A program made the translations under genes and the position numbers. A stretch of DNA of 34,356 nt from a virus. Its lineage: Duplodnaviria > Heunggongvirae > Uroviricota > Caudoviricetes. The notes under the pieces were generated by a model. The model was not told the origin of the DNA. It was given only the letters and a program-made list of their open reading frames with translations, and did not search any database. The stretch is from IMG/VR virus record IMGVR_UViG_2684622669_000020. The stretch is one strand, 5' to 3'. The stretch's first letter is position 1. Each line of letters starts with the position of its first letter. Shown here piece after piece: positions 23,981 through 34,356 of the stretch.

Positions 23981-24448
23981 TTAATCAAAAAGCCCCACCT
24001 GGGTGGGGCTTTTCAGCGAAGTCTGTTTTTGTCGTCGGTGTATCAGCTGCCATGCATACCTGTCTGAAATCCCGTAACGGGGACAGAGCAGTGCCAGCGC
24101 CTGCCGGTGTGAGCATCCGTCTTTTACATGCTGCTGTAAATCAGCCATAAAACGGGTGTTACGCAGGGCACGTAACGCATGATCGCAACGGGGAATGTAA
24201 AACGGAGCACCGCCAAGAAAGCGGATCAGTTTGTTGATTTCGTCTTCGGTCAGCACATCATGTAACAGGGCATGGACGCCGCCGGTGCGTTCAGCGTGTG
24301 CGCCGGTTTTACCGCTTAACGTCACGCCACCAAAAGAACGGATTAACCGGGTCAGGGCGGGGAAGCCAATCACGCTAATCAGTTGTTGCACGGAGTCGGG
24401 CAGCAGTGCCTGCGCATCGCGAAGATCTGTTTCACTGAAGGTCTGCAT
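23981..24448 (-). CDS. Mor/C-family transcriptional activator (probable late-gene activator)
   Basis: 155 aa; C-terminal region GGAPFYIPRCDHALRALRNTRF...GISDRYAWQLIHRRQ fits the Mor/C-family DNA-binding region; sits between early genes and the lysis/late block. Confidence 0.75.
   Translation of the reverse strand: MQTFSETDLRDAQALLPDSVQQLISVIGFPALTRLIRSFGGVTLSGKTGAHAERTGGVHALLHDVLTEDEINKLIRFLGGAPFYIPRCDHALRALRNTRFMADLQQHVKDGCSHRQALALLCPRYGISDRYAWQLIHRRQKQTSLKSPTQVGLFD
23992..24013 (-). terminator. Intrinsic terminator overlapping the 3-prime end of the activator gene
   Basis: Minus strand GCCCCACC-ca-GGTGGGGC followed by TTTTTGATTAA; the stem and T-run encode the last residues SPTQVGLFD and the stop. 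Confidence 0.6.
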
Positions 24449-24543: not shown

Positions 24544-24957
24544 TTATTGTTTACGTGCTGCTCTGGCTCGTTTTCTGGCGTCTTTTGTCAGCGCCACCAT
24601 CACCCCGAACAGTTGATCATCTGTCAGCCATTCGATCACATGTTGCTTATACATGTGAGATGCCAGTCCTTCCGCATACGCCCAGGAACGACCGGCATCA
24701 GCCAGCAACGCTTCAATTTTGGATAATACTGATTTTCTGCTCATTGCAACACGGGGGCGGCGACCTTGACCGGCGGGTGCCTTGCGCGGAAATCCCTGTT
24801 CGTGCATGTATTCCCGGATGATGCGCAGTTCATCGAGGTTGCAGCGTGTGGTGCTGGTTTTACCGGTCAGGCGGGCCAGCGTCTGGCGATAAAGGACATC
24901 ATCCCACCCCAGATACGCCTGACCGGTTTTAATGGCTCTGATCATCTTTTTCAGCAT
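24544..24957 (-). CDS. gemA: GemA-like early regulatory protein (Mu gp16 family)
   Basis: Start moved to ATG 24957 (GAGGAT upstream); MLKKMIRAIKTGQAYLGWDDVLYRQTLARLTGKTSTTRCNLDELRIIREYMHEQGF matches the GemA-family pattern as I recall it. Confidence 0.65.
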   Translation of the reverse strand: MLKKMIRAIKTGQAYLGWDDVLYRQTLARLTGKTSTTRCNLDELRIIREYMHEQGFPRKAPAGQGRRPRVAMSRKSVLSKIEALLADAGRSWAYAEGLASHMYKQHVIEWLTDDQLFGVMVALTKDARKRARAARKQ

Positions 24958-25243
24958 GTTTGTTATCCTCAAAACGCACGGTAAAACGTGAAACGCCAAT
25001 CCCTGACAGGAACGCAGCGGCACGGTCAAGAGACAGCCACGTCTTGTAATCGCCACGGCGTTCCTGTAGAAAATAGGACACCCCGGCGCGACGATTCACA
25101 GCAAAGAGGTGATACACACCACCGAACCGCTGCACGACGAACTCATCCACGCCACCGCTTTCAGCCTGTTGCCTGAAAGCTGCCATTCCGATTTGTTCAA
25201 TCTTCATAATGACCAAAACATCACTTTTGGCAGACCAAAACAC
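24929..25243 (-). CDS. Hypothetical protein
   Basis: 104-aa ORF; track start is GTG, first ATG is 25207, neither has a clear SD. Confidence 0.4.
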   Translation of the reverse strand: MFWSAKSDVLVIMKIEQIGMAAFRQQAESGGVDEFVVQRFGGVYHLFAVNRRAGVSYFLQERRGDYKTWLSLDRAAAFLSGIGVSRFTVRFEDNKHAEKDDQSH

Positions 25244-26914: not shown

Positions 26915-27625
26915 TTACACCCTCCCCAGTGCCAGCGGTCTGTTGCTCTGACCATTAACTCCCTGATGCAGCCTGGCGTTTTTTCCGGCGATAAAACCGG
27001 CAGTAGCGGCAAACTCTGCACCCCGGCACGCTTTAGCCGTACGCATATCCCCGTCGCGCAGTCCTTTAGTGCTGTGCAGATTCTTTCTGTAAAGCTCAAG
27101 GCGGCTTTTTTCTTCCGGGGAGACGTCATACACCGCAATGACATCACGGGCACCAAAGACCCAGCCTTCGCAGAACTGGTCGCCACGGGCCACCCGCGTG
27201 GACGGGCCGCAACGTTTGCAGTGTTTATCCTGATATTTCTTGCGCTCTGCCATCATCTGACGGGAAAGCACATCAAACGCGTAAGCCGCGATTTCCGGGC
27301 GGCTGTCAGAGCCATAAAAACGCACGTGACGTTTGAGTGAACCAGAAGCCCGGTACTCACCGGAGATGTAACACTCGACGCCGAAGGCTTTACAGACCAG
27401 GTCACACAGGATGTGCATATAACGCGGCGGCGTACTGGCATCACTCGGCGCACCCGCGCTGGCAGCTTCCTGAATGTCGAACAATTCAGCGTCGTTTTCG
27501 CTGATGCCATGCTGGCGCATATAAGCCTGGGCTTTTGCAATAGCGTTAGCGGCTTCTTCCGGGCTTGATGTTCCTCTGGCAAGGTGTAACAGCTTTTTAA
27601 TTTTGGCGATGTATTTATCTTTCAT
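26915..27625 (-). CDS. DUF2786-like early protein
   Basis: 236 aa; N-terminus MKDKYIAKIKKLLHLARGTSSPEEAANAIAKAQAYMRQHGI matches the DUF2786-type N-terminal signature as I recall it; Cys-rich C-terminus. Confidence 0.6.
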   Translation of the reverse strand: MKDKYIAKIKKLLHLARGTSSPEEAANAIAKAQAYMRQHGISENDAELFDIQEAASAGAPSDASTPPRYMHILCDLVCKAFGVECYISGEYRASGSLKRHVRFYGSDSRPEIAAYAFDVLSRQMMAERKKYQDKHCKRCGPSTRVARGDQFCEGWVFGARDVIAVYDVSPEEKSRLELYRKNLHSTKGLRDGDMRTAKACRGAEFAATAGFIAGKNARLHQGVNGQSNRPLALGRV

Positions 27626-27638
27626 GGTCGTCTGAACC

Positions 27639-27821
27639 TCAGCATCCTGAATTCTGAATTACGCAACTTCCGGCACGGCCTTCAGGAACGTGGGGAGTTC
27701 GTTCTGGCTGCGGCGCTGGATGATCATCTGCTGTCGATTGAGAACTGGTCGCAAGACGATTAAAACAAACGATTGTCAGATTAATTTCGCGGGAGAATTT
27801 TTTTTGCTTAGCGATATTCAT
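27639..27821 (-). CDS. Possible small ORF in AT-rich spacer
   Basis: 60 codons with GAGGAAG upstream of ATG 27821; low-complexity sequence, so uncertain. Confidence 0.3.
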   Translation of the reverse strand: MNIAKQKKFSREINLTIVCFNRLATSSQSTADDHPAPQPERTPHVPEGRAGSCVIQNSGC

Positions 27822-27875
27822 AAATAAACTTCCTCAGAATCAGGCGCAGACCTGTTTACCTGCGCCATAAAAAAA

Positions 27876-28274
27876 TCAGAAATCAGAATCGAAATCGAAA
27901 ACGTCAGTTAATTCCCGCTTCAGTGAAACGCGCTCAGAATAAAAGCCATTGCTCTCACTGCACCATCTGACGGTCACACAGCCTTTTGATGTACCGAACT
28001 TAAAGAAACTCCATGTCTGATGACCTTCCCCGACATCACATTCTTCTGTAACCACTTCAGCCTCTGTTAGCGGTTCGCCTTGCAGGTCGTCAAGGTTTCC
28101 GACGATGTCCTCAATCCAGACTTTTTCGCAGCAGTCCTGAAAGTGAAAAAACGTAAACACGGTCCCCCATACTCCGCAGGAATAATCACCACGAAAAACA
28201 AGTTCATCGTTTTCATTCTTAAATACTTCTTTAAATGTACGCCCAAGCATTTCATTGATAACGGTAACGCTCAT
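27876..28274 (-). CDS. Acidic hypothetical protein (moron-like)
   Basis: 132 aa, GGAGAA SD; about 26 Asp/Glu versus about 10 Lys/Arg by eye; AT-rich gene flanked by AT-rich spacers with hairpins. Confidence 0.6.
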   Translation of the reverse strand: MSVTVINEMLGRTFKEVFKNENDELVFRGDYSCGVWGTVFTFFHFQDCCEKVWIEDIVGNLDDLQGEPLTEAEVVTEECDVGEGHQTWSFFKFGTSKGCVTVRWCSESNGFYSERVSLKRELTDVFDFDSDF

Positions 28275-28354
28275 TTCTGTTTCTCCAGATTCAGGCGTAA
28301 GCCAGCCCCGACGGGTTTACGCCTGTTTTAAATAACAATTAAAAACAAATTAAA

Positions 28355-28546
28355 TTAATGCGGTGCTTTCAGTGTTTCGACTTTAACGAAATAAGGCTCG
28401 ACATTAATTTCAACCACACAACCACATTTAAAATCTCTGGCAGGTGAAACGGTTTTCACCACACGACCACCACGCAACGCCGGATGTGCAGTGTGCATGA
28501 AGCGAGTCCCTACTGGATACTGCTTATTAAAGTTCTTCGCATTCAT
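28355..28546 (-). CDS. Hypothetical small protein
   Basis: 63-aa ORF with GGAGG upstream of ATG 28546. Confidence 0.5.
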   Translation of the reverse strand: MNAKNFNKQYPVGTRFMHTAHPALRGGRVVKTVSPARDFKCGCVVEINVEPYFVKVETLKAPH

Positions 28547-28761: not shown

Positions 28762-29406
28762 TTAAACTCCTGCAATATCCAGCGGGATTGCGCGGTATTC
28801 ATCAGAATCACCGACGCGCTCATACACGCGGATATAGCTTCTGCTGCCAACCACCTGGACGGCTTCACCAATCAGTTTCATGGCGTTATCCCAGCGTTCC
28901 TCCGTAATATCGAGACGACGCAGAGCCAGAACGCGCCCGGTGTTAATGTTGCCTTCCTTGTCCGTGCTGAATGCCTCACTGATGATGGCTTTAATTTCAG
29001 GGCGCGCTCCTTCCGTCCAGTCAGCCAGGCAGTCATCAATCAGTGCCTTCGCGGTCTGAATGCGTTCATCAAGCGCGATACGGTCCTGCATAGCGCGCTG
29101 AATCTTGTAACGCCCGTCAAAGCTGTAAAGCGTGATATTGCCTTTTTTGCCGCCTTTCACAGCGCCGTATTTCTCCGCCGACAGGTCAATAAACGCCTGA
29201 ATATCACCAAACGCACGCAGTTTCAGTTCACGCAGTGAGGCAGAGGCAGCAATCACCATCTCCACAAGCTCACCGACCAGCTGCTCACGGTCGCGGTCAA
29301 TATCTTTGATAAGGCTTTCAGGTGTCATTACGCCACGGGCATCCACCCAGTAACCTTCAGGCGCTTGAGTTTTCGTGTATTGCTTAACTTTATTTTCAGT
29401 CGTCAT
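28762..29406 (-). CDS. Conserved Mu-like early-region protein (possibly DUF3164 family)
   Basis: 214-aa ORF with GAGGTAAT SD upstream of ATG 29406; no similarity to Mu Gam as I recall it. Confidence 0.6.
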   Translation of the reverse strand: MTTENKVKQYTKTQAPEGYWVDARGVMTPESLIKDIDRDREQLVGELVEMVIAASASLRELKLRAFGDIQAFIDLSAEKYGAVKGGKKGNITLYSFDGRYKIQRAMQDRIALDERIQTAKALIDDCLADWTEGARPEIKAIISEAFSTDKEGNINTGRVLALRRLDITEERWDNAMKLIGEAVQVVGSRSYIRVYERVGDSDEYRAIPLDIAGV

Positions 29407-29435: not shown

Positions 29436-29672
29436 TTAATTTGTGTTATGTGCGCAAGGCGCAACGTTTTCAGAAAAAAGATTCACGCCGTTATAGTCAT
29501 TTCTGAGCGTTTCCTTGATAACATCATGTAATCTTGTTGCCACCTGAAACTCCTTTTCGGAAGCTCCGTCCTCCGAATAACTCCCCGTGGTCTGGGTTAA
29601 AACACAGCCTTTTTCATCGGTATAGATAATTACTTCTAACTTAACCGCCATGTTTTTCTCCTTTAAAATCAA
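29436..29672 (-). CDS. Hypothetical small protein
   Basis: 78-aa ORF (alternative ATG at 29651) in the early-gene array. Confidence 0.4.
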   Translation of the reverse strand: MILKEKNMAVKLEVIIYTDEKGCVLTQTTGSYSEDGASEKEFQVATRLHDVIKETLRNDYNGVNLFSENVAPCAHNTN

Positions 29673-29832
29673 ATGATTTAAAAATAATTTCGTTCATAAA
29701 ACAGTGAGTTTTTATGATAATGTCGGAAACCTGCTCTCCCGTGACATCAGGCGGCAACTGATACGTCGCGACGGTTTTCTCCGGTTTACCTGGCCTGTCC
29801 AGGCTGAAAGTTAATTCAAGCTCCAGTGACAT
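29641..29832 (-). CDS. Hypothetical small protein
   Basis: 63-aa ORF in the early-gene array. Confidence 0.4.
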   Translation of the reverse strand: MSLELELTFSLDRPGKPEKTVATYQLPPDVTGEQVSDIIIKTHCFMNEIIFKSFDFKGEKHGG

Positions 29833-29842
29833 TTTTCACCTC

Positions 29843-30094
29843 TCAATGCATTTGTGTCTCTTGAGGAATATACGGACATCCCTGTGCCAGTTGTTTCACG
29901 TAGTCATGGTAGATTTGCAGATCAAGCCGTTCATTTCCGTGTTTCTCCTTCAGAACCGTACAAATAGCACCGACAGTCCCCAGAGTTCTTGCTGCTTCTT
30001 CGAGTGTGGCATTGTCGCCATTTTCCACCCGAATAAGGTTATGGCACTGGTTATTACCCAGGTCGGTAAATACTATTGTTAATTTCACGCTCAC
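29843..30094 (-). CDS. Hypothetical small protein
   Basis: 83-aa ORF, GTG start with GAGGAA 8 nt upstream. Confidence 0.45.
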   Translation of the reverse strand: MSVKLTIVFTDLGNNQCHNLIRVENGDNATLEEAARTLGTVGAICTVLKEKHGNERLDLQIYHDYVKQLAQGCPYIPQETQMH

Positions 30095-30109: not shown

Positions 30110-30349
30110 TTATTGCCATACGACGGTGCAGCCGTCGATACAGGACGTTTTAACCACGCGGCGCAGGCCGCTGAATCTCTGGATGATTTCCGTTACCGGC
30201 CATACAGGACCCCCCACGGGCGGGCAGGCATAAACCACAGGTAAACGGTGATGCTGTCCCGTTACACGGCCACCGGTGGTGTGGATGGCCACACGGGCAC
30301 GGGAACGGACGGCGTTAATGGTCTGCTTGTCCATCGTCTTGTTCTCCAT
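30110..30349 (-). CDS. Hypothetical small protein downstream of B
   Basis: 79-aa ORF; ATG overlaps the B stop (ATGA). Confidence 0.45.
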   Translation of the reverse strand: MENKTMDKQTINAVRSRARVAIHTTGGRVTGQHHRLPVVYACPPVGGPVWPVTEIIQRFSGLRRVVKTSCIDGCTVVWQ

Positions 30350-31242
30350 CAGTGAATTAACATTTCTGCGAAATCATCAATAGCCTGCACACTGACCGGC
30401 GCATCGCTGATATCACAAATCCGGTAGACCCCACGCACAAGTTTAAACAGGCGTCGGGCATTGCCCCGTGAGCGTGTGTAAAGTGCTTCACAGATTTCAG
30501 GCGCTGCTGCTTCCGGCATCAGTTCGGCGGCTATCTGGATGAAATCCTTCTGCGCCAGCGTATCGCCGAGGTCCAGCGAAAGAGCCACCCGACTGTATAG
30601 CTGCGCGAACTCCCCACGATTGCCTTTAAGATTAATCAACAGGCGCGGCATACCAGCCAGGGCAACACCGACGCCCGCCTTGTCATGCAGACGACGCAGA
30701 ACTTCCAGCGCACGATAGGGGAGCAGTTCGGCTTCATCCACCATCAGCAGGCGACCGGAGTCACGCAATTCGTGTACGCAGGCATTAATCAGTTCGTGAA
30801 TATTGCCGCGAACCTTTACCCCCAACTGGCGGCACAGTTCCTCCAGCAGTGTCCTGGCTGTATAGCCCGGGTCAGCCTCAATCAGTATTGCGTCCCGGTT
30901 TCTGGCGGCGTATTCGCGCAAAATCATTGTTTTGCCAAGACCTGCCGCGCCATACAACACGCTAATTTCACACTCCAGATGAGCATAGGCCAGCGCCTCC
31001 AGCCCTTTGGCGGCCATACCTGTAGTCACAAAACTTGCTTTTACACGCCGGTTGTTTTCTTTTTCCCGTTCACGGCTGACAAAGGCAGAAATTCGCTCTT
31101 CGATATCAGTGATATCGCCCTGATATTTACCCTGCAAATACTGGTTGATAACGGCGCTGCTACGACCAATAGCACGGGCAACGTGGGTCTGCGTATAGCC
31201 GCGACGGGCCATTACGTCATTTAATTGCGTAATTAAACTCAT
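30349..31242 (-). CDS. B: Transposition ATPase B (MuB-like)
   Basis: 297 aa; N-terminal HTH then Walker A GAAGLGKT and D-E motif MVDEAE; directly downstream of the transposase. Confidence 0.85.
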   Translation of the reverse strand: MSLITQLNDVMARRGYTQTHVARAIGRSSAVINQYLQGKYQGDITDIEERISAFVSREREKENNRRVKASFVTTGMAAKGLEALAYAHLECEISVLYGAAGLGKTMILREYAARNRDAILIEADPGYTARTLLEELCRQLGVKVRGNIHELINACVHELRDSGRLLMVDEAELLPYRALEVLRRLHDKAGVGVALAGMPRLLINLKGNRGEFAQLYSRVALSLDLGDTLAQKDFIQIAAELMPEAAAPEICEALYTRSRGNARRLFKLVRGVYRICDISDAPVSVQAIDDFAEMLIH

Positions 31243-31259: not shown

Positions 31260-33335
31260 TTAACGGTTGTTTGTGCCGTCTTTCTTTAAATTGCGGTCAC
31301 GCTCGGATGCAAAGAAATAAAGTTCTTCTTTTTTCTTTTCCTCCTTACGCTCCAGACCAAATCCAAAATTAAAGTCAGGTCTCTGCGTAATAGCCGGGGT
31401 AAGCTCGCGTTTAGCCTCTTCGATTTTCTGCGTGGCCCGTGCAATGCGGCCTCTGGCGCGTTTCTCCTGCTGCTGTTCGATAACAGCTTTCGGGAACGCA
31501 TCAACCTTATTACCGTTCCAGATGGCATCGCAGATATAAGAACCGTCCATCCGCCTGACAATCACGCTGTTTGCGTCGTGAATGTCGTAACAAACCCTGA
31601 CTTCATTTCCGTGCTCTGCTGCCAGTTCTGTGGAGAAATAGATGTTTCTGAATAACACCACTTCACCGCGTCGCACCGTGCAGATGCTTTCCGGTCGGAA
31701 CATTTCATGCAGTTCTTCCGGCGACAGCATGTCGATTTCAGCCTTTTGCTCTTTTATCAGTTTCCGGCGATACGCTGCCGGGCTGTAATGTTCGCCATCC
31801 TCTTTGCGGGGAAGGCTGCTGTGTGGCCGGTTGTTATACCGTTTCACCTCCAGCTCTATTGCGGCCATCAGTTGCTCAAAAGTGGGGACTTCTCCCATCG
31901 CTTTAACCTGCCGCTTTGTCAGCTCTTTCCCTTTGTGGGTGGCCTTAATGGCTGACTGTGTGATGCGTTGCTGCATCATCACCGTTTCCTTGTCTGCATT
32001 TTTTGAGCAGTACGTCTGGAAACTCAGGGCCACATCTTTGGGTATTCCTTTGTTTGCCCGTTCTATTACCCCGCGCCCCTGCGGGTTACCAGGTATCCCC
32101 GTGTGATGCTCCACACCCAGCCGGGGCAGAATCCCGGTAATATCGGCATCAAGCACCCGGTTTTTTTCACCGCCCCCGTTATCGGAGTAATAAATCAGCG
32201 GTATTCCGTGTTGTGACATGCCATGACGCAATGCATCAGCAACGGCTATCACGTTCTCCGACAGGGACAGCGACCAGCCCACAATAAAGCGTTGCCCCGC
32301 ATCCATAACCAGCGTCACTTCTGGCCGGAATGTATTCCCGGTGGCAGGGTTGAATGCCATCAGTTTCATACAGTGACCATCCCCGACCCATACCGCATTA
32401 ACCGGTAATGTGCTCCAGTCGCGCCGCACAAAGGGATTGAGCGAACGCCAGGCTGAGCCGGTGGAGCGGAAACGCTCCTTAACAATCACCGGGACGTTGC
32501 TTAACACCCGTCTTACTGCGTGAACTGAAGGCAGTGCTGCCAGCATTCCCGCATCGTTCGCGTGTTTTTCATGCCACCAGGCTGAAAACTCGCGATACGC
32601 ATATTCAACGGTCGGGCGCTTCCATGAGCGATAGAACATAAAGAAATCGCTCAACCACCAGACCTGCTCCCACGGTGTTCCCTTATGATGACCGGGAGCC
32701 AGTAACGCCAGTAACTGATTGGCATCACCGCGCGCCATCAGCCAGGCGGAATACCATTCCTGTAAACTCCCTGTACTGACGCCAGTTCGCTTACCCTGTC
32801 GGGCATTGGCGGTATTACCGGCCACAATAACGCGCTCGGGCAAAGCCCCCTGGCGGATACCATCAACGATGTGTTTTATCGCTGCTGTCCTGGACATTCC
32901 TGCGTATTCACGCAGTTTATGCACTTCGGTAGCCAGCAATATCCGCGCATCAGCGATGGCCTTTTGCTTGTCGGTCAGTGCCTGAACTTCGCGTAATGCC
33001 AGTTCCGGGCATTTGACCATCACTTCCAGTTCATCGCGAATGGTGACGTTCTTAACTGCCTTCTGCTCAACCACGGCGGGCAGTTGCGCATCTTCCAGAA
33101 CCTGATGGGTCAGGCGTTGACGTAAAACCTTCTGAACATCTTTAGGTAAACTGGATATATGGTACTCATATATTTTCCCCTGAACTCCAGACTTCCTTCT
33201 TCTTGTCCAGTTCGCTCGTTTAGCTTTTTGAGTGATCCCCTGTACAGTTTTCGGTAGCCCTTGAAGCCCTGTTAGTTCATTCAACGTAAACCATTCAGGT
33301 TCGAACTTGACTTCATAGTCGTTGTTCTTATTCAT
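31260..33335 (-). CDS. A: DDE transposase (MuA-like)
   Basis: 691 aa; N-terminal domain resembles the repressor N-terminus (LxGLxGLPxTxQGIxQKAKRxxW); central integrase-like catalytic region; followed by B. Confidence 0.9.
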   Translation of the reverse strand: MNKNNDYEVKFEPEWFTLNELTGLQGLPKTVQGITQKAKRANWTRRRKSGVQGKIYEYHISSLPKDVQKVLRQRLTHQVLEDAQLPAVVEQKAVKNVTIRDELEVMVKCPELALREVQALTDKQKAIADARILLATEVHKLREYAGMSRTAAIKHIVDGIRQGALPERVIVAGNTANARQGKRTGVSTGSLQEWYSAWLMARGDANQLLALLAPGHHKGTPWEQVWWLSDFFMFYRSWKRPTVEYAYREFSAWWHEKHANDAGMLAALPSVHAVRRVLSNVPVIVKERFRSTGSAWRSLNPFVRRDWSTLPVNAVWVGDGHCMKLMAFNPATGNTFRPEVTLVMDAGQRFIVGWSLSLSENVIAVADALRHGMSQHGIPLIYYSDNGGGEKNRVLDADITGILPRLGVEHHTGIPGNPQGRGVIERANKGIPKDVALSFQTYCSKNADKETVMMQQRITQSAIKATHKGKELTKRQVKAMGEVPTFEQLMAAIELEVKRYNNRPHSSLPRKEDGEHYSPAAYRRKLIKEQKAEIDMLSPEELHEMFRPESICTVRRGEVVLFRNIYFSTELAAEHGNEVRVCYDIHDANSVIVRRMDGSYICDAIWNGNKVDAFPKAVIEQQQEKRARGRIARATQKIEEAKRELTPAITQRPDFNFGFGLERKEEKKKEELYFFASERDRNLKKDGTNNR

Positions 33336-33777: not shown

Positions 33778-34356
33778 ATGAAACAAGAATGGGTTGCCGC
33801 AAAAGACCTGGTAGGGCTTCATGGTTTACCTGCCACAATTCAGGGAATTCACCAAAAAGCCAAAAGGGGCGGATGGCGCAAAGAGAAAAGAATTACACCT
33901 GGTGTGAAGGGACATCAGGTATACTTCTACTTGCCTGATTTGCCTGAAAAAATACGCTGCTCCTTGGTGTCGAAAGACAGAGAAACTCCAGTGAGGAATG
34001 ATTTAAACAAAGGGTTGATATCAATACTGGAAATGACATCCGCAGAAGATCAATTCAATCTTTTTCGCGCTTTGTGTGAATTTGGCATCAAAGGAGTCCT
34101 AGAACACCTACAACAACCCACCAGGCAAGCTACGCAGGCCGACAGCGACCAGGACGAACAGGAGAATGCCATCAGAAGTCTAAACATCAGGGAATCGCTT
34201 AAAGACGTTATATGTATGGCTCTAGATGGTAATGAAGAAACCGACAAAGAGATTTTGCGACGCATCGAATCTCGTGCACGGGCTGGGTCGCCAGGTGGTC
34301 AGACCGTTGCCACGCCGGAGCAAGAAACGAAGCCTGTAAGCAAAAAATCAGCATGA
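33778..34356 (+). CDS. c: Mu-type repressor c
   Basis: 192 aa; N-terminal domain similar to the transposase N-terminus; divergent from ner; AGGGG SD; stop codon is the last 3 nt of the window. Confidence 0.8.
   Translation: MKQEWVAAKDLVGLHGLPATIQGIHQKAKRGGWRKEKRITPGVKGHQVYFYLPDLPEKIRCSLVSKDRETPVRNDLNKGLISILEMTSAEDQFNLFRALCEFGIKGVLEHLQQPTRQATQADSDQDEQENAIRSLNIRESLKDVICMALDGNEETDKEILRRIESRARAGSPGGQTVATPEQETKPVSKKSA

Follow-up and report, generated by a model that had tools for sequence, protein, structure and literature searches.

The gene studied here encodes a 132-amino-acid (aa) protein of the family DUF7448 and lies, as a cassette, in a recombination hot spot of a tailed-phage genome, the IMG/VR record IMGVR_UViG_2684622669_000020. 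The window, which is the whole stretch of 34,356 nucleotides (nt) that was analysed, is, as judged from its gene content, a Mu-like transposable prophage, and the DUF7448 gene is located in its semi-essential early accessory region, between the gene for MuB and those for GemA and Mor (Table 1). The hot spot is a slot between the open reading frame (ORF) ORF63 and a DUF2786 gene, and its contents are bounded by repeated hairpin elements. We have high confidence in this anatomy of the cassette and in the assignment of its product to the family. DUF7448 is already catalogued in Pfam and PHROG; what is new is the recognition of the gene in the window as a member, and of its place in a system of promoterless cassettes similar to the promoter-early stem-loop (PeSL) system of T4-type phages. 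As the best overall explanation we tentatively propose, with somewhat less than even confidence, a promoterless cassette with a product that acts as an acidic decoy or inhibitor.

The slot was compared across related loci retrieved by megablast against 5426 complete Escherichia coli genomes. The locus is present in 58 of these genomes and the DUF7448 gene in 15 of the 58, which leaves 43 related prophages without it. A sequence-only reading of the window had proposed such a comparison of presence and absence across related prophages, and it shows that the insertion is variable in otherwise collinear genomes. In the annotated loci, the slot contains the DUF7448 gene alone (L002), ORF60 alone (L003), the DUF7448 gene with a 181-aa ORF (B181) and the ORF60 sequence (L001 and L090), B181 with the ORF60 sequence (L087), a 177-aa ORF (C177) with ORF60 (L089), or C177 with a 121-aa ORF (E121; L088). 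In a multiple alignment with L003, where the site is empty, the junction between the filled and the empty site falls exactly inside the repeat CGCCTGA(A/T)TCTG(G)AGGAA. Small AT-rich ORFs are thus gained, lost and permuted between ORF63 and DUF2786, apparently by recombination between the boundary elements. B181, C177 and E121, none of which matches a family in Pfam, NCBIfam or PADLOC, share the first codons MKDKVW, and the DUF2786 gene starts with MKDKYI. These common MKDK starts suggest that recombination also takes place within the first codons.

The arrangement in the window, in which the DUF7448 gene is directly followed by ORF60, is shared by four public contigs that encode the identical 132-aa protein. 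Two of the four were recovered with their flanks, and the other early accessory genes differ between these two. A megablast search of the region against the phages in GenBank gave no match. Two further AT-rich ORFs of the early region, one of 83 aa (29843-30094) and one of 63 aa (29641-29832), are variably present and are missing from one of the contigs with the identical DUF7448 protein (L096). Since the early AT-rich ORFs at 29436-30094 are variably present (L095 versus L096), the whole interval from MuB to GemA is mosaic. The status of ORF60 differs between annotations, with the RefSeq genomes annotating one strand of this region, the other strand or neither. Read on the other strand, positions 27623-27760 (+) correspond to the last 46 aa of an antisense coding sequence of 72 aa (87% identity, E = 3e-23 with tblastn), which is intact and annotated in E. 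coli STEC346 (L090, positions 1762-1980).

Every cassette in the slot is preceded by an AT-rich run, a GC-rich hairpin, the sequence CGCCTGAAT, a Shine-Dalgarno sequence and the ATG codon. This boundary element is roughly 35-60 nt long and occurs in 21 copies over 10 loci, one at each cassette boundary. The downstream element in the window matches positions 28281-28297 as direct repeat D4. The hairpin stems are of a common type, GGCGTAA/TTACGCC, and a second type, GGCGCAG/CTGCGCC, which differ by two compensatory base-pair changes, arguing that the stem itself is conserved. The second type is always placed 3' of the DUF7448 gene, in all five of the loci with the gene. In the window, there are two matches to the gapped hairpin pattern where zero are expected, and 13 matches to the 10-mer core with at most one mismatch where 4.9 are expected. 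Searches elsewhere returned little: a scan for the hairpin element in bacteria, with one genome per species, gave a single match that looks genuine, in Citrobacter murliniae, along with three that are likely due to chance, and an Rfam scan gave only a sub-threshold match to Lnt (E = 0.29). An integron attC cassette was considered and rejected, as the hairpins, when read directly, lack RYYYAAC/GTTRRRY cores and no IntI integrase was found. Of the early-region proteins that were scanned, only the Mu transposase was identified as a recombinase.

The sequence-only reading had described the gene as part of a moron-like island with stem-loops on both sides, and both stem-loops are indeed present at the positions given. 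No site resembling a sigma-70 promoter with at least 9 of 12 matches was found by a consensus scan of positions 28275-28354, and the counts of promoter-like sites in the region are at the level expected by chance. The terminator scan calls neither hairpin and there is no U-run after either of them, the type-2 hairpin being followed by GAUUCUGAGG. Intrinsic terminators at the hairpins were therefore rejected, as no U-tract was accepted by the scan on either strand. Morons, named for "more DNA" in lambdoid phages, are independent transcription units inserted in a prophage. Like them, the DUF7448 gene is inserted between genes that lie next to each other in relatives, and deviates in base composition, but it has no detectable promoter or factor-independent terminator of its own and lies inside a lytic early operon. 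For this reason we refer to it as a promoterless, hairpin-bounded cassette, and the strict moron label was rejected on the results of the promoter and terminator scans.

In Mu, it is the early promoter Pe that drives transcription of the semi-essential early region. The cassette would likewise be transcribed within the early operon at the start of the lytic cycle, presumably by read-through, and the hairpins would probably serve as boundaries for recombination, for stabilisation of the mRNA or for both, rather than as terminators. Because the gene is located within the lytic early operon, expression from a repressed prophage is not expected. The closest described analogue of the cassette system appears to be PeSL of the T4-type phages, in which recombination between repeated motifs, each consisting of a promoter and a stem-loop, shuffles small ORFs (PMC2839356, PMC4122927). 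In both systems, a repeated intergenic stem-loop motif flanks small non-essential ORFs of a hyperplastic region, and the junctions of insertions, deletions and replacements fall inside the motif. However, the element in the window consists of only a hairpin and a Shine-Dalgarno sequence, with no sigma-70 promoter and no U-tract terminator detected, suggesting that expression of the cassettes relies on read-through from the early promoter of Mu.

The base composition of the gene sets it apart from most of the window. Its GC content is 0.441 as compared with 0.540 for the window, which places it in the 5th percentile of equal-sized windows, and the entire stretch at 27626-28354 has a GC content of 0.442 (4th percentile). 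The GC content at third codon positions is 0.44 in the DUF7448 gene versus 0.54-0.59 in the core genes. The gene had been read as AT-richer than its surroundings, and the quantitative analysis bears this out, but the patch extends beyond it: ORF63 (0.443), ORF60 (0.464) and every small accessory ORF in the early region (0.40-0.46) are AT-rich relative to the core genes (0.52-0.58). A Shine-Dalgarno sequence of its own, GGAGAA, is present at 28286-28281, 6 nt ahead of the ATG at 28274. The spacers around the gene, of 80 and 54 nt, stand out in an array in which the neighbouring genes are tightly packed or overlapping, but the 250 nt downstream are not empty, as they hold the 60-codon ORF or possible antisense remnant. 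The protein has an isoelectric point of 4.29 and a net charge of -15.3, with 26 aspartate and glutamate residues versus 11 lysine and arginine residues, six cysteines and 20 aromatic residues, in agreement with the earlier description of a strongly acidic protein with cysteines and aromatic residues; the acidity, moreover, is family-wide. All landmarks listed in Table 1 for the window except the repressor are encoded on the minus strand.

Table 1. Features of the window and cassettes of related loci (positions refer to the window unless a locus is named).
Feature	Position	Strand	Basis or content
Repressor with Mu DNA-binding domain	33778-34356	+	Pfam/PHROG-type family scans
MuA	31260-33335	-	Family scans
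MuB-like AAA+ protein	30349-31242	-	Family scans
DUF3164 gene	28762-29406	-	Family scans
ORF63 (phrog_5591), conserved left flank of the slot	28355-28546	-	ORF list, PHROG, related loci
Upstream boundary element	28275-28354	-	AT-rich stretch, type-1 hairpin, core CGCCTGAATC, Shine-Dalgarno GGAGAA (28281-28286)
Type-1 hairpin (CAGGCGTAA...TTACGCCTG)	28292-28325	-	-17.5 kcal/mol, z -2.4; inverted repeat I10
DUF7448 coding sequence, 132 aa	27876-28274	-	ORF list, Pfam PF24240, phrog_2650
Downstream boundary element	27822-27875	-	U-run, type-2 hairpin, core CGCCTGATTCTGAGGAA (27830-27846), start region of next ORF
Type-2 hairpin (GGCGCAGG...TCTGCGCC)	27843-27866	-	-14.0 kcal/mol, z -2.95
ORF60, 60-codon cassette or remnant	27639-27821	-	ORF list; RefSeq annotation inconsistent between genomes
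DUF2786/DUF7168 gene, conserved right flank of the slot	26915-27625	-	Pfam, related loci
GemA	24544-25056	-	Family scans
Mor	23981-24448	-	Family scans
B181 cassette, 181 aa	L001 3778-4323		
C177 cassette, 177 aa	L088 628-1161		
E121 cassette, 121 aa	L088 1241-1606		

The match of the protein to Pfam DUF7448 (PF24240) has an E-value of 3.3e-19 and a score of 69.6 bits versus a cutoff of 27, with residues 8-117 aligned to positions 2-103 of the 104 positions in the profile, and the match to phrog_2650 has an E-value of 1.2e-33. Its sequence contains the motifs HxQDCCE and SNG(Y/F)YSE. No match was obtained with PADLOC or NCBIfam. The family is restricted to phages, acidic and strongly conserved, and has no solved structural relative. 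A profile search against 1.84 billion representatives, clustered at 50% identity, identified at least 5,203 clusters for which the E-value is at most 1e-3, including 3,940 with E-values of at most 1e-10. With tblastn, DUF7448 was found in 159 phages in GenBank at about 35-48% identity, including Herelleviridae that infect Bacillus (79 records), temperate podophages of Pseudomonas, T5-like Epseptimavirus, phages of Acinetobacter, jumbo phages of Ralstonia and Burkholderia, and phages of Sinorhizobium. All 187 domains examined are acidic, with a median net charge of -13.4, a median isoelectric point of 4.33 and a maximum charge of -4, and nine acidic columns are conserved in the alignment of the family. 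The acidic C-terminal tail DVFDFDSDF (residues 124-132, positions 27876-27905) is only present in the enterobacterial Mu-like subgroup, in which many members end with -DF. We take this tail, which is acidic with a terminal aromatic residue, to be reminiscent of the C-terminal tails of the type seen in single-stranded DNA-binding proteins.

The most conserved residues, as counted over 188 DUF7448 sequences, form two motifs. In the first, HxQDCCE, the residues H44, C48, C49 and E50 are 98-99% conserved. In the second, GxSNGYYSE, conservation is 97% for G106, 97-98% for S108, G110 and Y112, and 92-95% for N109, S113 and E114. Two AlphaFold2 runs predicted the same all-beta topology, with mean-model confidence (pLDDT, predicted local distance difference test) values of 86.9 and 83.6, and both motifs are placed in inter-strand loops, where the pLDDT is the lowest in the core. 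The product is taken to be cytoplasmic, and it is strongly acidic with a predicted all-beta fold. Searches against all sequences in the PDB with phmmer and with a profile of 65 sequences gave nothing below an E-value of 0.6, and Foldseek gave nothing below 0.02 against the PDB. The structural matches in BFVD are to other DUF7448 proteins or uncharacterised viral proteins only. More remote matches in BFVD are to uncharacterised proteins of mimivirus, tupanvirus and pithovirus (E-values of 1e-4 to 5e-3, template modelling scores of 0.5-0.6), which hints that the fold also occurs in giant viruses of eukaryotes. The sequence, profile and fold searches showed no homology to structural or metabolic proteins, which would have spoken for a different role than the anti-defence function suggested from the sequence alone.

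As for the mode of action, the most likely candidate, although one to which we assign only about a third of the weight, is that the protein serves as an acidic decoy for, or inhibitor of, a conserved enzyme acting on nucleic acids. It would bind in stoichiometric amounts to the surface with which a widely conserved enzyme of the host, possibly a nuclease that targets DNA or tRNA, contacts nucleic acids, and DUF7448 would then be a factor for host takeover or counter-defence. The proposal of a DNA mimic agrees with the high net negative charge of the protein and of the family; however, none of the folds of the DNA mimics Ocr, ArdA, Ugi and Arn, with which DUF7448 shares its acidity, is present in the match lists, and any mimicry would be at the level of the protein surface. 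The immunity proteins of nuclease toxins, PIM7 (PDB 8owu_E) and Tsi3, offer no closer parallel, as the identity is 12%, the Foldseek match is non-significant and there is no gene for a cognate toxin, and DUF7448 is far more conserved.

Several observations weigh against a decoy of this kind. The copies in the E. coli and Bacillus phages are about 45% identical, more than is usual for inhibitors that act on specific defence proteins. The plasmid search gave 22 matches, all in non-mobilizable records, from Bacillus and Clostridium (which contribute the most), Lysinibacillus, Ralstonia and one Escherichia fergusonii, and DUF7448 was found on no mobilizable plasmid, unlike anti-restriction genes of the ArdA/Ocr type. 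Conservation reaches at least 80% in about 35 columns, which are concentrated in the two predicted loops and include H44, C48, C49, E50, K97, R103, S108, N109, Y112, S113 and E114; this concentration fits a ligand-binding or active site better than a charge mimic. The guilt-by-association analysis of 82 viral loci identified no conserved protein partner that could point to a target, and a literature search on DUF7448, PF24240 and phrog_2650 found no paper and no experiment on any member. In addition, of the family's near-invariant residues, the allele in the window has H44, C48, C49, E50, G59, T95, G98, S108, G110 and Y112, but a serine in place of G106, the glycine found in 97% of the family; at position 60 it has an asparagine, where 91% have an aspartate or glutamate, and sister alleles in E. 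coli carry C48G together with N109E, C48D, or N109L. These departures and losses make the activity of the allele in the window uncertain.

The conserved loops are the foundation of the main rival explanation, which is possible but on balance improbable: that DUF7448 is a small-molecule binder or an enzyme, in which the two loops form a pocket or a metal site for a nucleotide-derived compound, for example an immune signal derived from NAD+ or ADP-ribose or a cyclic-nucleotide signal, so that the protein would act as a sponge or a hydrolase. The near-invariance of the motif residues in the predicted loops supports such a site. The sponges Tad1, Tad2 and Acb2 are small stand-alone early proteins with conserved pocket-like motifs, found in unrelated phages of Gram-positive and Gram-negative hosts, and the wide cross-phylum spread of DUF7448 resembles that of these known families. 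DUF7448 is also similar to them in size and in its pocket-like motifs, but no similarity in sequence or fold to these or any other known sponge or enzyme was found in the PDB, Foldseek and Pfam searches. The alleles of E. coli with C48G, C48D or N109L, which persist under purifying selection, also speak against this reading. When 65 and 96 members of the family were scanned against Pfam at relaxed thresholds, no second family emerged other than the SLOG domain YAcAr in two proteins. Several members have N-terminal extensions that presumably resemble the repeat-companion domain "ADWLxxxG" in proteins of planctomycetes and myxobacteria, and among the metagenomic members P0040, P0086 and P0133 one is a tandem duplication in which the first copy is degenerate. 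The YAcAr fusions favour a ligand, as the YAcAr family is predicted to utilise NAD+ in the conflict systems of phages (PMC7824862), but they concern only two of the 96 long members, one per order (P0086 and P0133), with borderline scores of 28.4 and 26.5 bits versus a Pfam gathering cutoff of 28.2. Genes for nucleotide metabolism are frequent neighbours, such as those for ribonucleotide reductase, dCMP deaminase and RNA ligase, and in one case Apyc1, which is also consistent with a nucleotide-derived ligand. An ADP-ribosyltransferase triad of the H-Y-E or R-S-E type was considered and rejected, since no more than 2-11 positions separate the conserved residues, a spacing incompatible with that fold.

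To learn more about the genomic context of the family, we inspected 82-83 loci, including 80 taken for their best scores, a selection in which sampling bias is possible; more than 520 candidate stretches were confirmed in IMG/VR. Unrelated phages, among them the Herelleviridae of Bacillus, have the gene at early or accessory positions. It is located between cI and Bet in the early-left operon of the Pseudomonas phage Ab31, among unannotated genes in the Bacillus phage SBSphiJ6, and between two tRNA-Ser genes in the T5-like phage Bas26 (gene bas26_0124). There are tRNA genes within 4 kb of the DUF7448 gene in 37 of 83 loci, and at least 10 such genes in 26 of 83. At these loci the gene is on the same strand as the tRNAs and typically inside the array, with the next tRNA mostly starting 2-9 nt past the stop codon. 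The flanking tRNAs vary by lineage, being Asp and Asn, Cys and Lys, His and Phe, or, in the T5-like phages, Ser and Ser, and the loci with tRNA arrays fall into at least four clusters by protein identity. Phage tRNAs are documented counter-measures to defences that cleave tRNA (PMC10264068, PMC11555353). The largest clusters of neighbours consist of spurious ORFs lying over tRNA genes, of an RNase H-like protein present at 13 loci and of dCMP deaminase at 8 loci, and other neighbours encode DnaB, primase and an RNA-repair HAD domain.

This context may also be read as that of a protein without a role in conflict, a helper of phage nucleic-acid metabolism that works with the phage tRNAs or in replication and is variably present because it is dispensable. 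Its embedding in tRNA arrays on the same strand in several lineages would fit, as would the neighbouring genes for DnaB, primase, ribonucleotide reductase, the RNase H-like protein, RNA ligase and the RNA-repair domain, and a sequence as strongly conserved as this one is typical for a housekeeping role. However, a net charge of -13 argues against direct binding of RNA or DNA, the Mu-like and Ab31-like temperate carriers have no tRNA genes nearby, and there is no consistent partner gene, and we regard a helper as unlikely.

A different question is whether the copy in the window is still functional, or is decaying cargo that hitch-hikes in the recombination hot spot of this prophage. The ratio of nonsynonymous to synonymous substitution rates (dN/dS) is 0.24 in a comparison with the copy in L001, as compared with 0.04-0.12 for the flanking genes, which indicates that the gene is under purifying selection, although looser than that on its neighbours. 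This elevated ratio, S106 and N60 in the window copy, the loss of C48 or N109 in the sister alleles, and the lack of the gene in most related prophages are what would be expected from decay. On the other hand, the ORF is intact with a good Shine-Dalgarno sequence, the dN/dS ratio is well below 1, the identical protein occurs on four independent contigs and the Pfam score is far above the threshold. Taken together, decay is quite improbable.

Returning to the acidic decoy or inhibitor, DUF7448 is a reasonable counter-defence candidate. A bolder version, which we consider rather unlikely, is that the family represents a previously unrecognised, phage-wide class of counter-defence proteins, either an acidic decoy of tRNA or DNA or a binder of an immune signal, with a target conserved between Firmicutes and Proteobacteria. 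It would be co-transcribed with tRNA arrays as an anti-tRNA-nuclease module in many lytic phages, and traded as a hairpin-bounded cassette in Mu-like prophages.

DUF7448 is among the larger phage-specific families that lack an assigned function, and its conservation over phages of both Gram-positive and Gram-negative bacteria is unusual. What it offers is a well-defined candidate for experiments rather than the demonstration of a new mechanism. Its profile, as an early or accessory acidic protein with two conserved loops that is associated with tRNA arrays and absent from mobilizable plasmids, gives screens for anti-defence and host-takeover functions a concrete protein to aim at. The boundary element may be used to harvest further candidates for accessory genes, such as B181, C177 and E121. 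For the biology of the Mu-like prophages, the slot shows that early accessory genes are shuffled at a short hairpin-containing element, which appears to be a simpler, promoterless counterpart of PeSL in T4.

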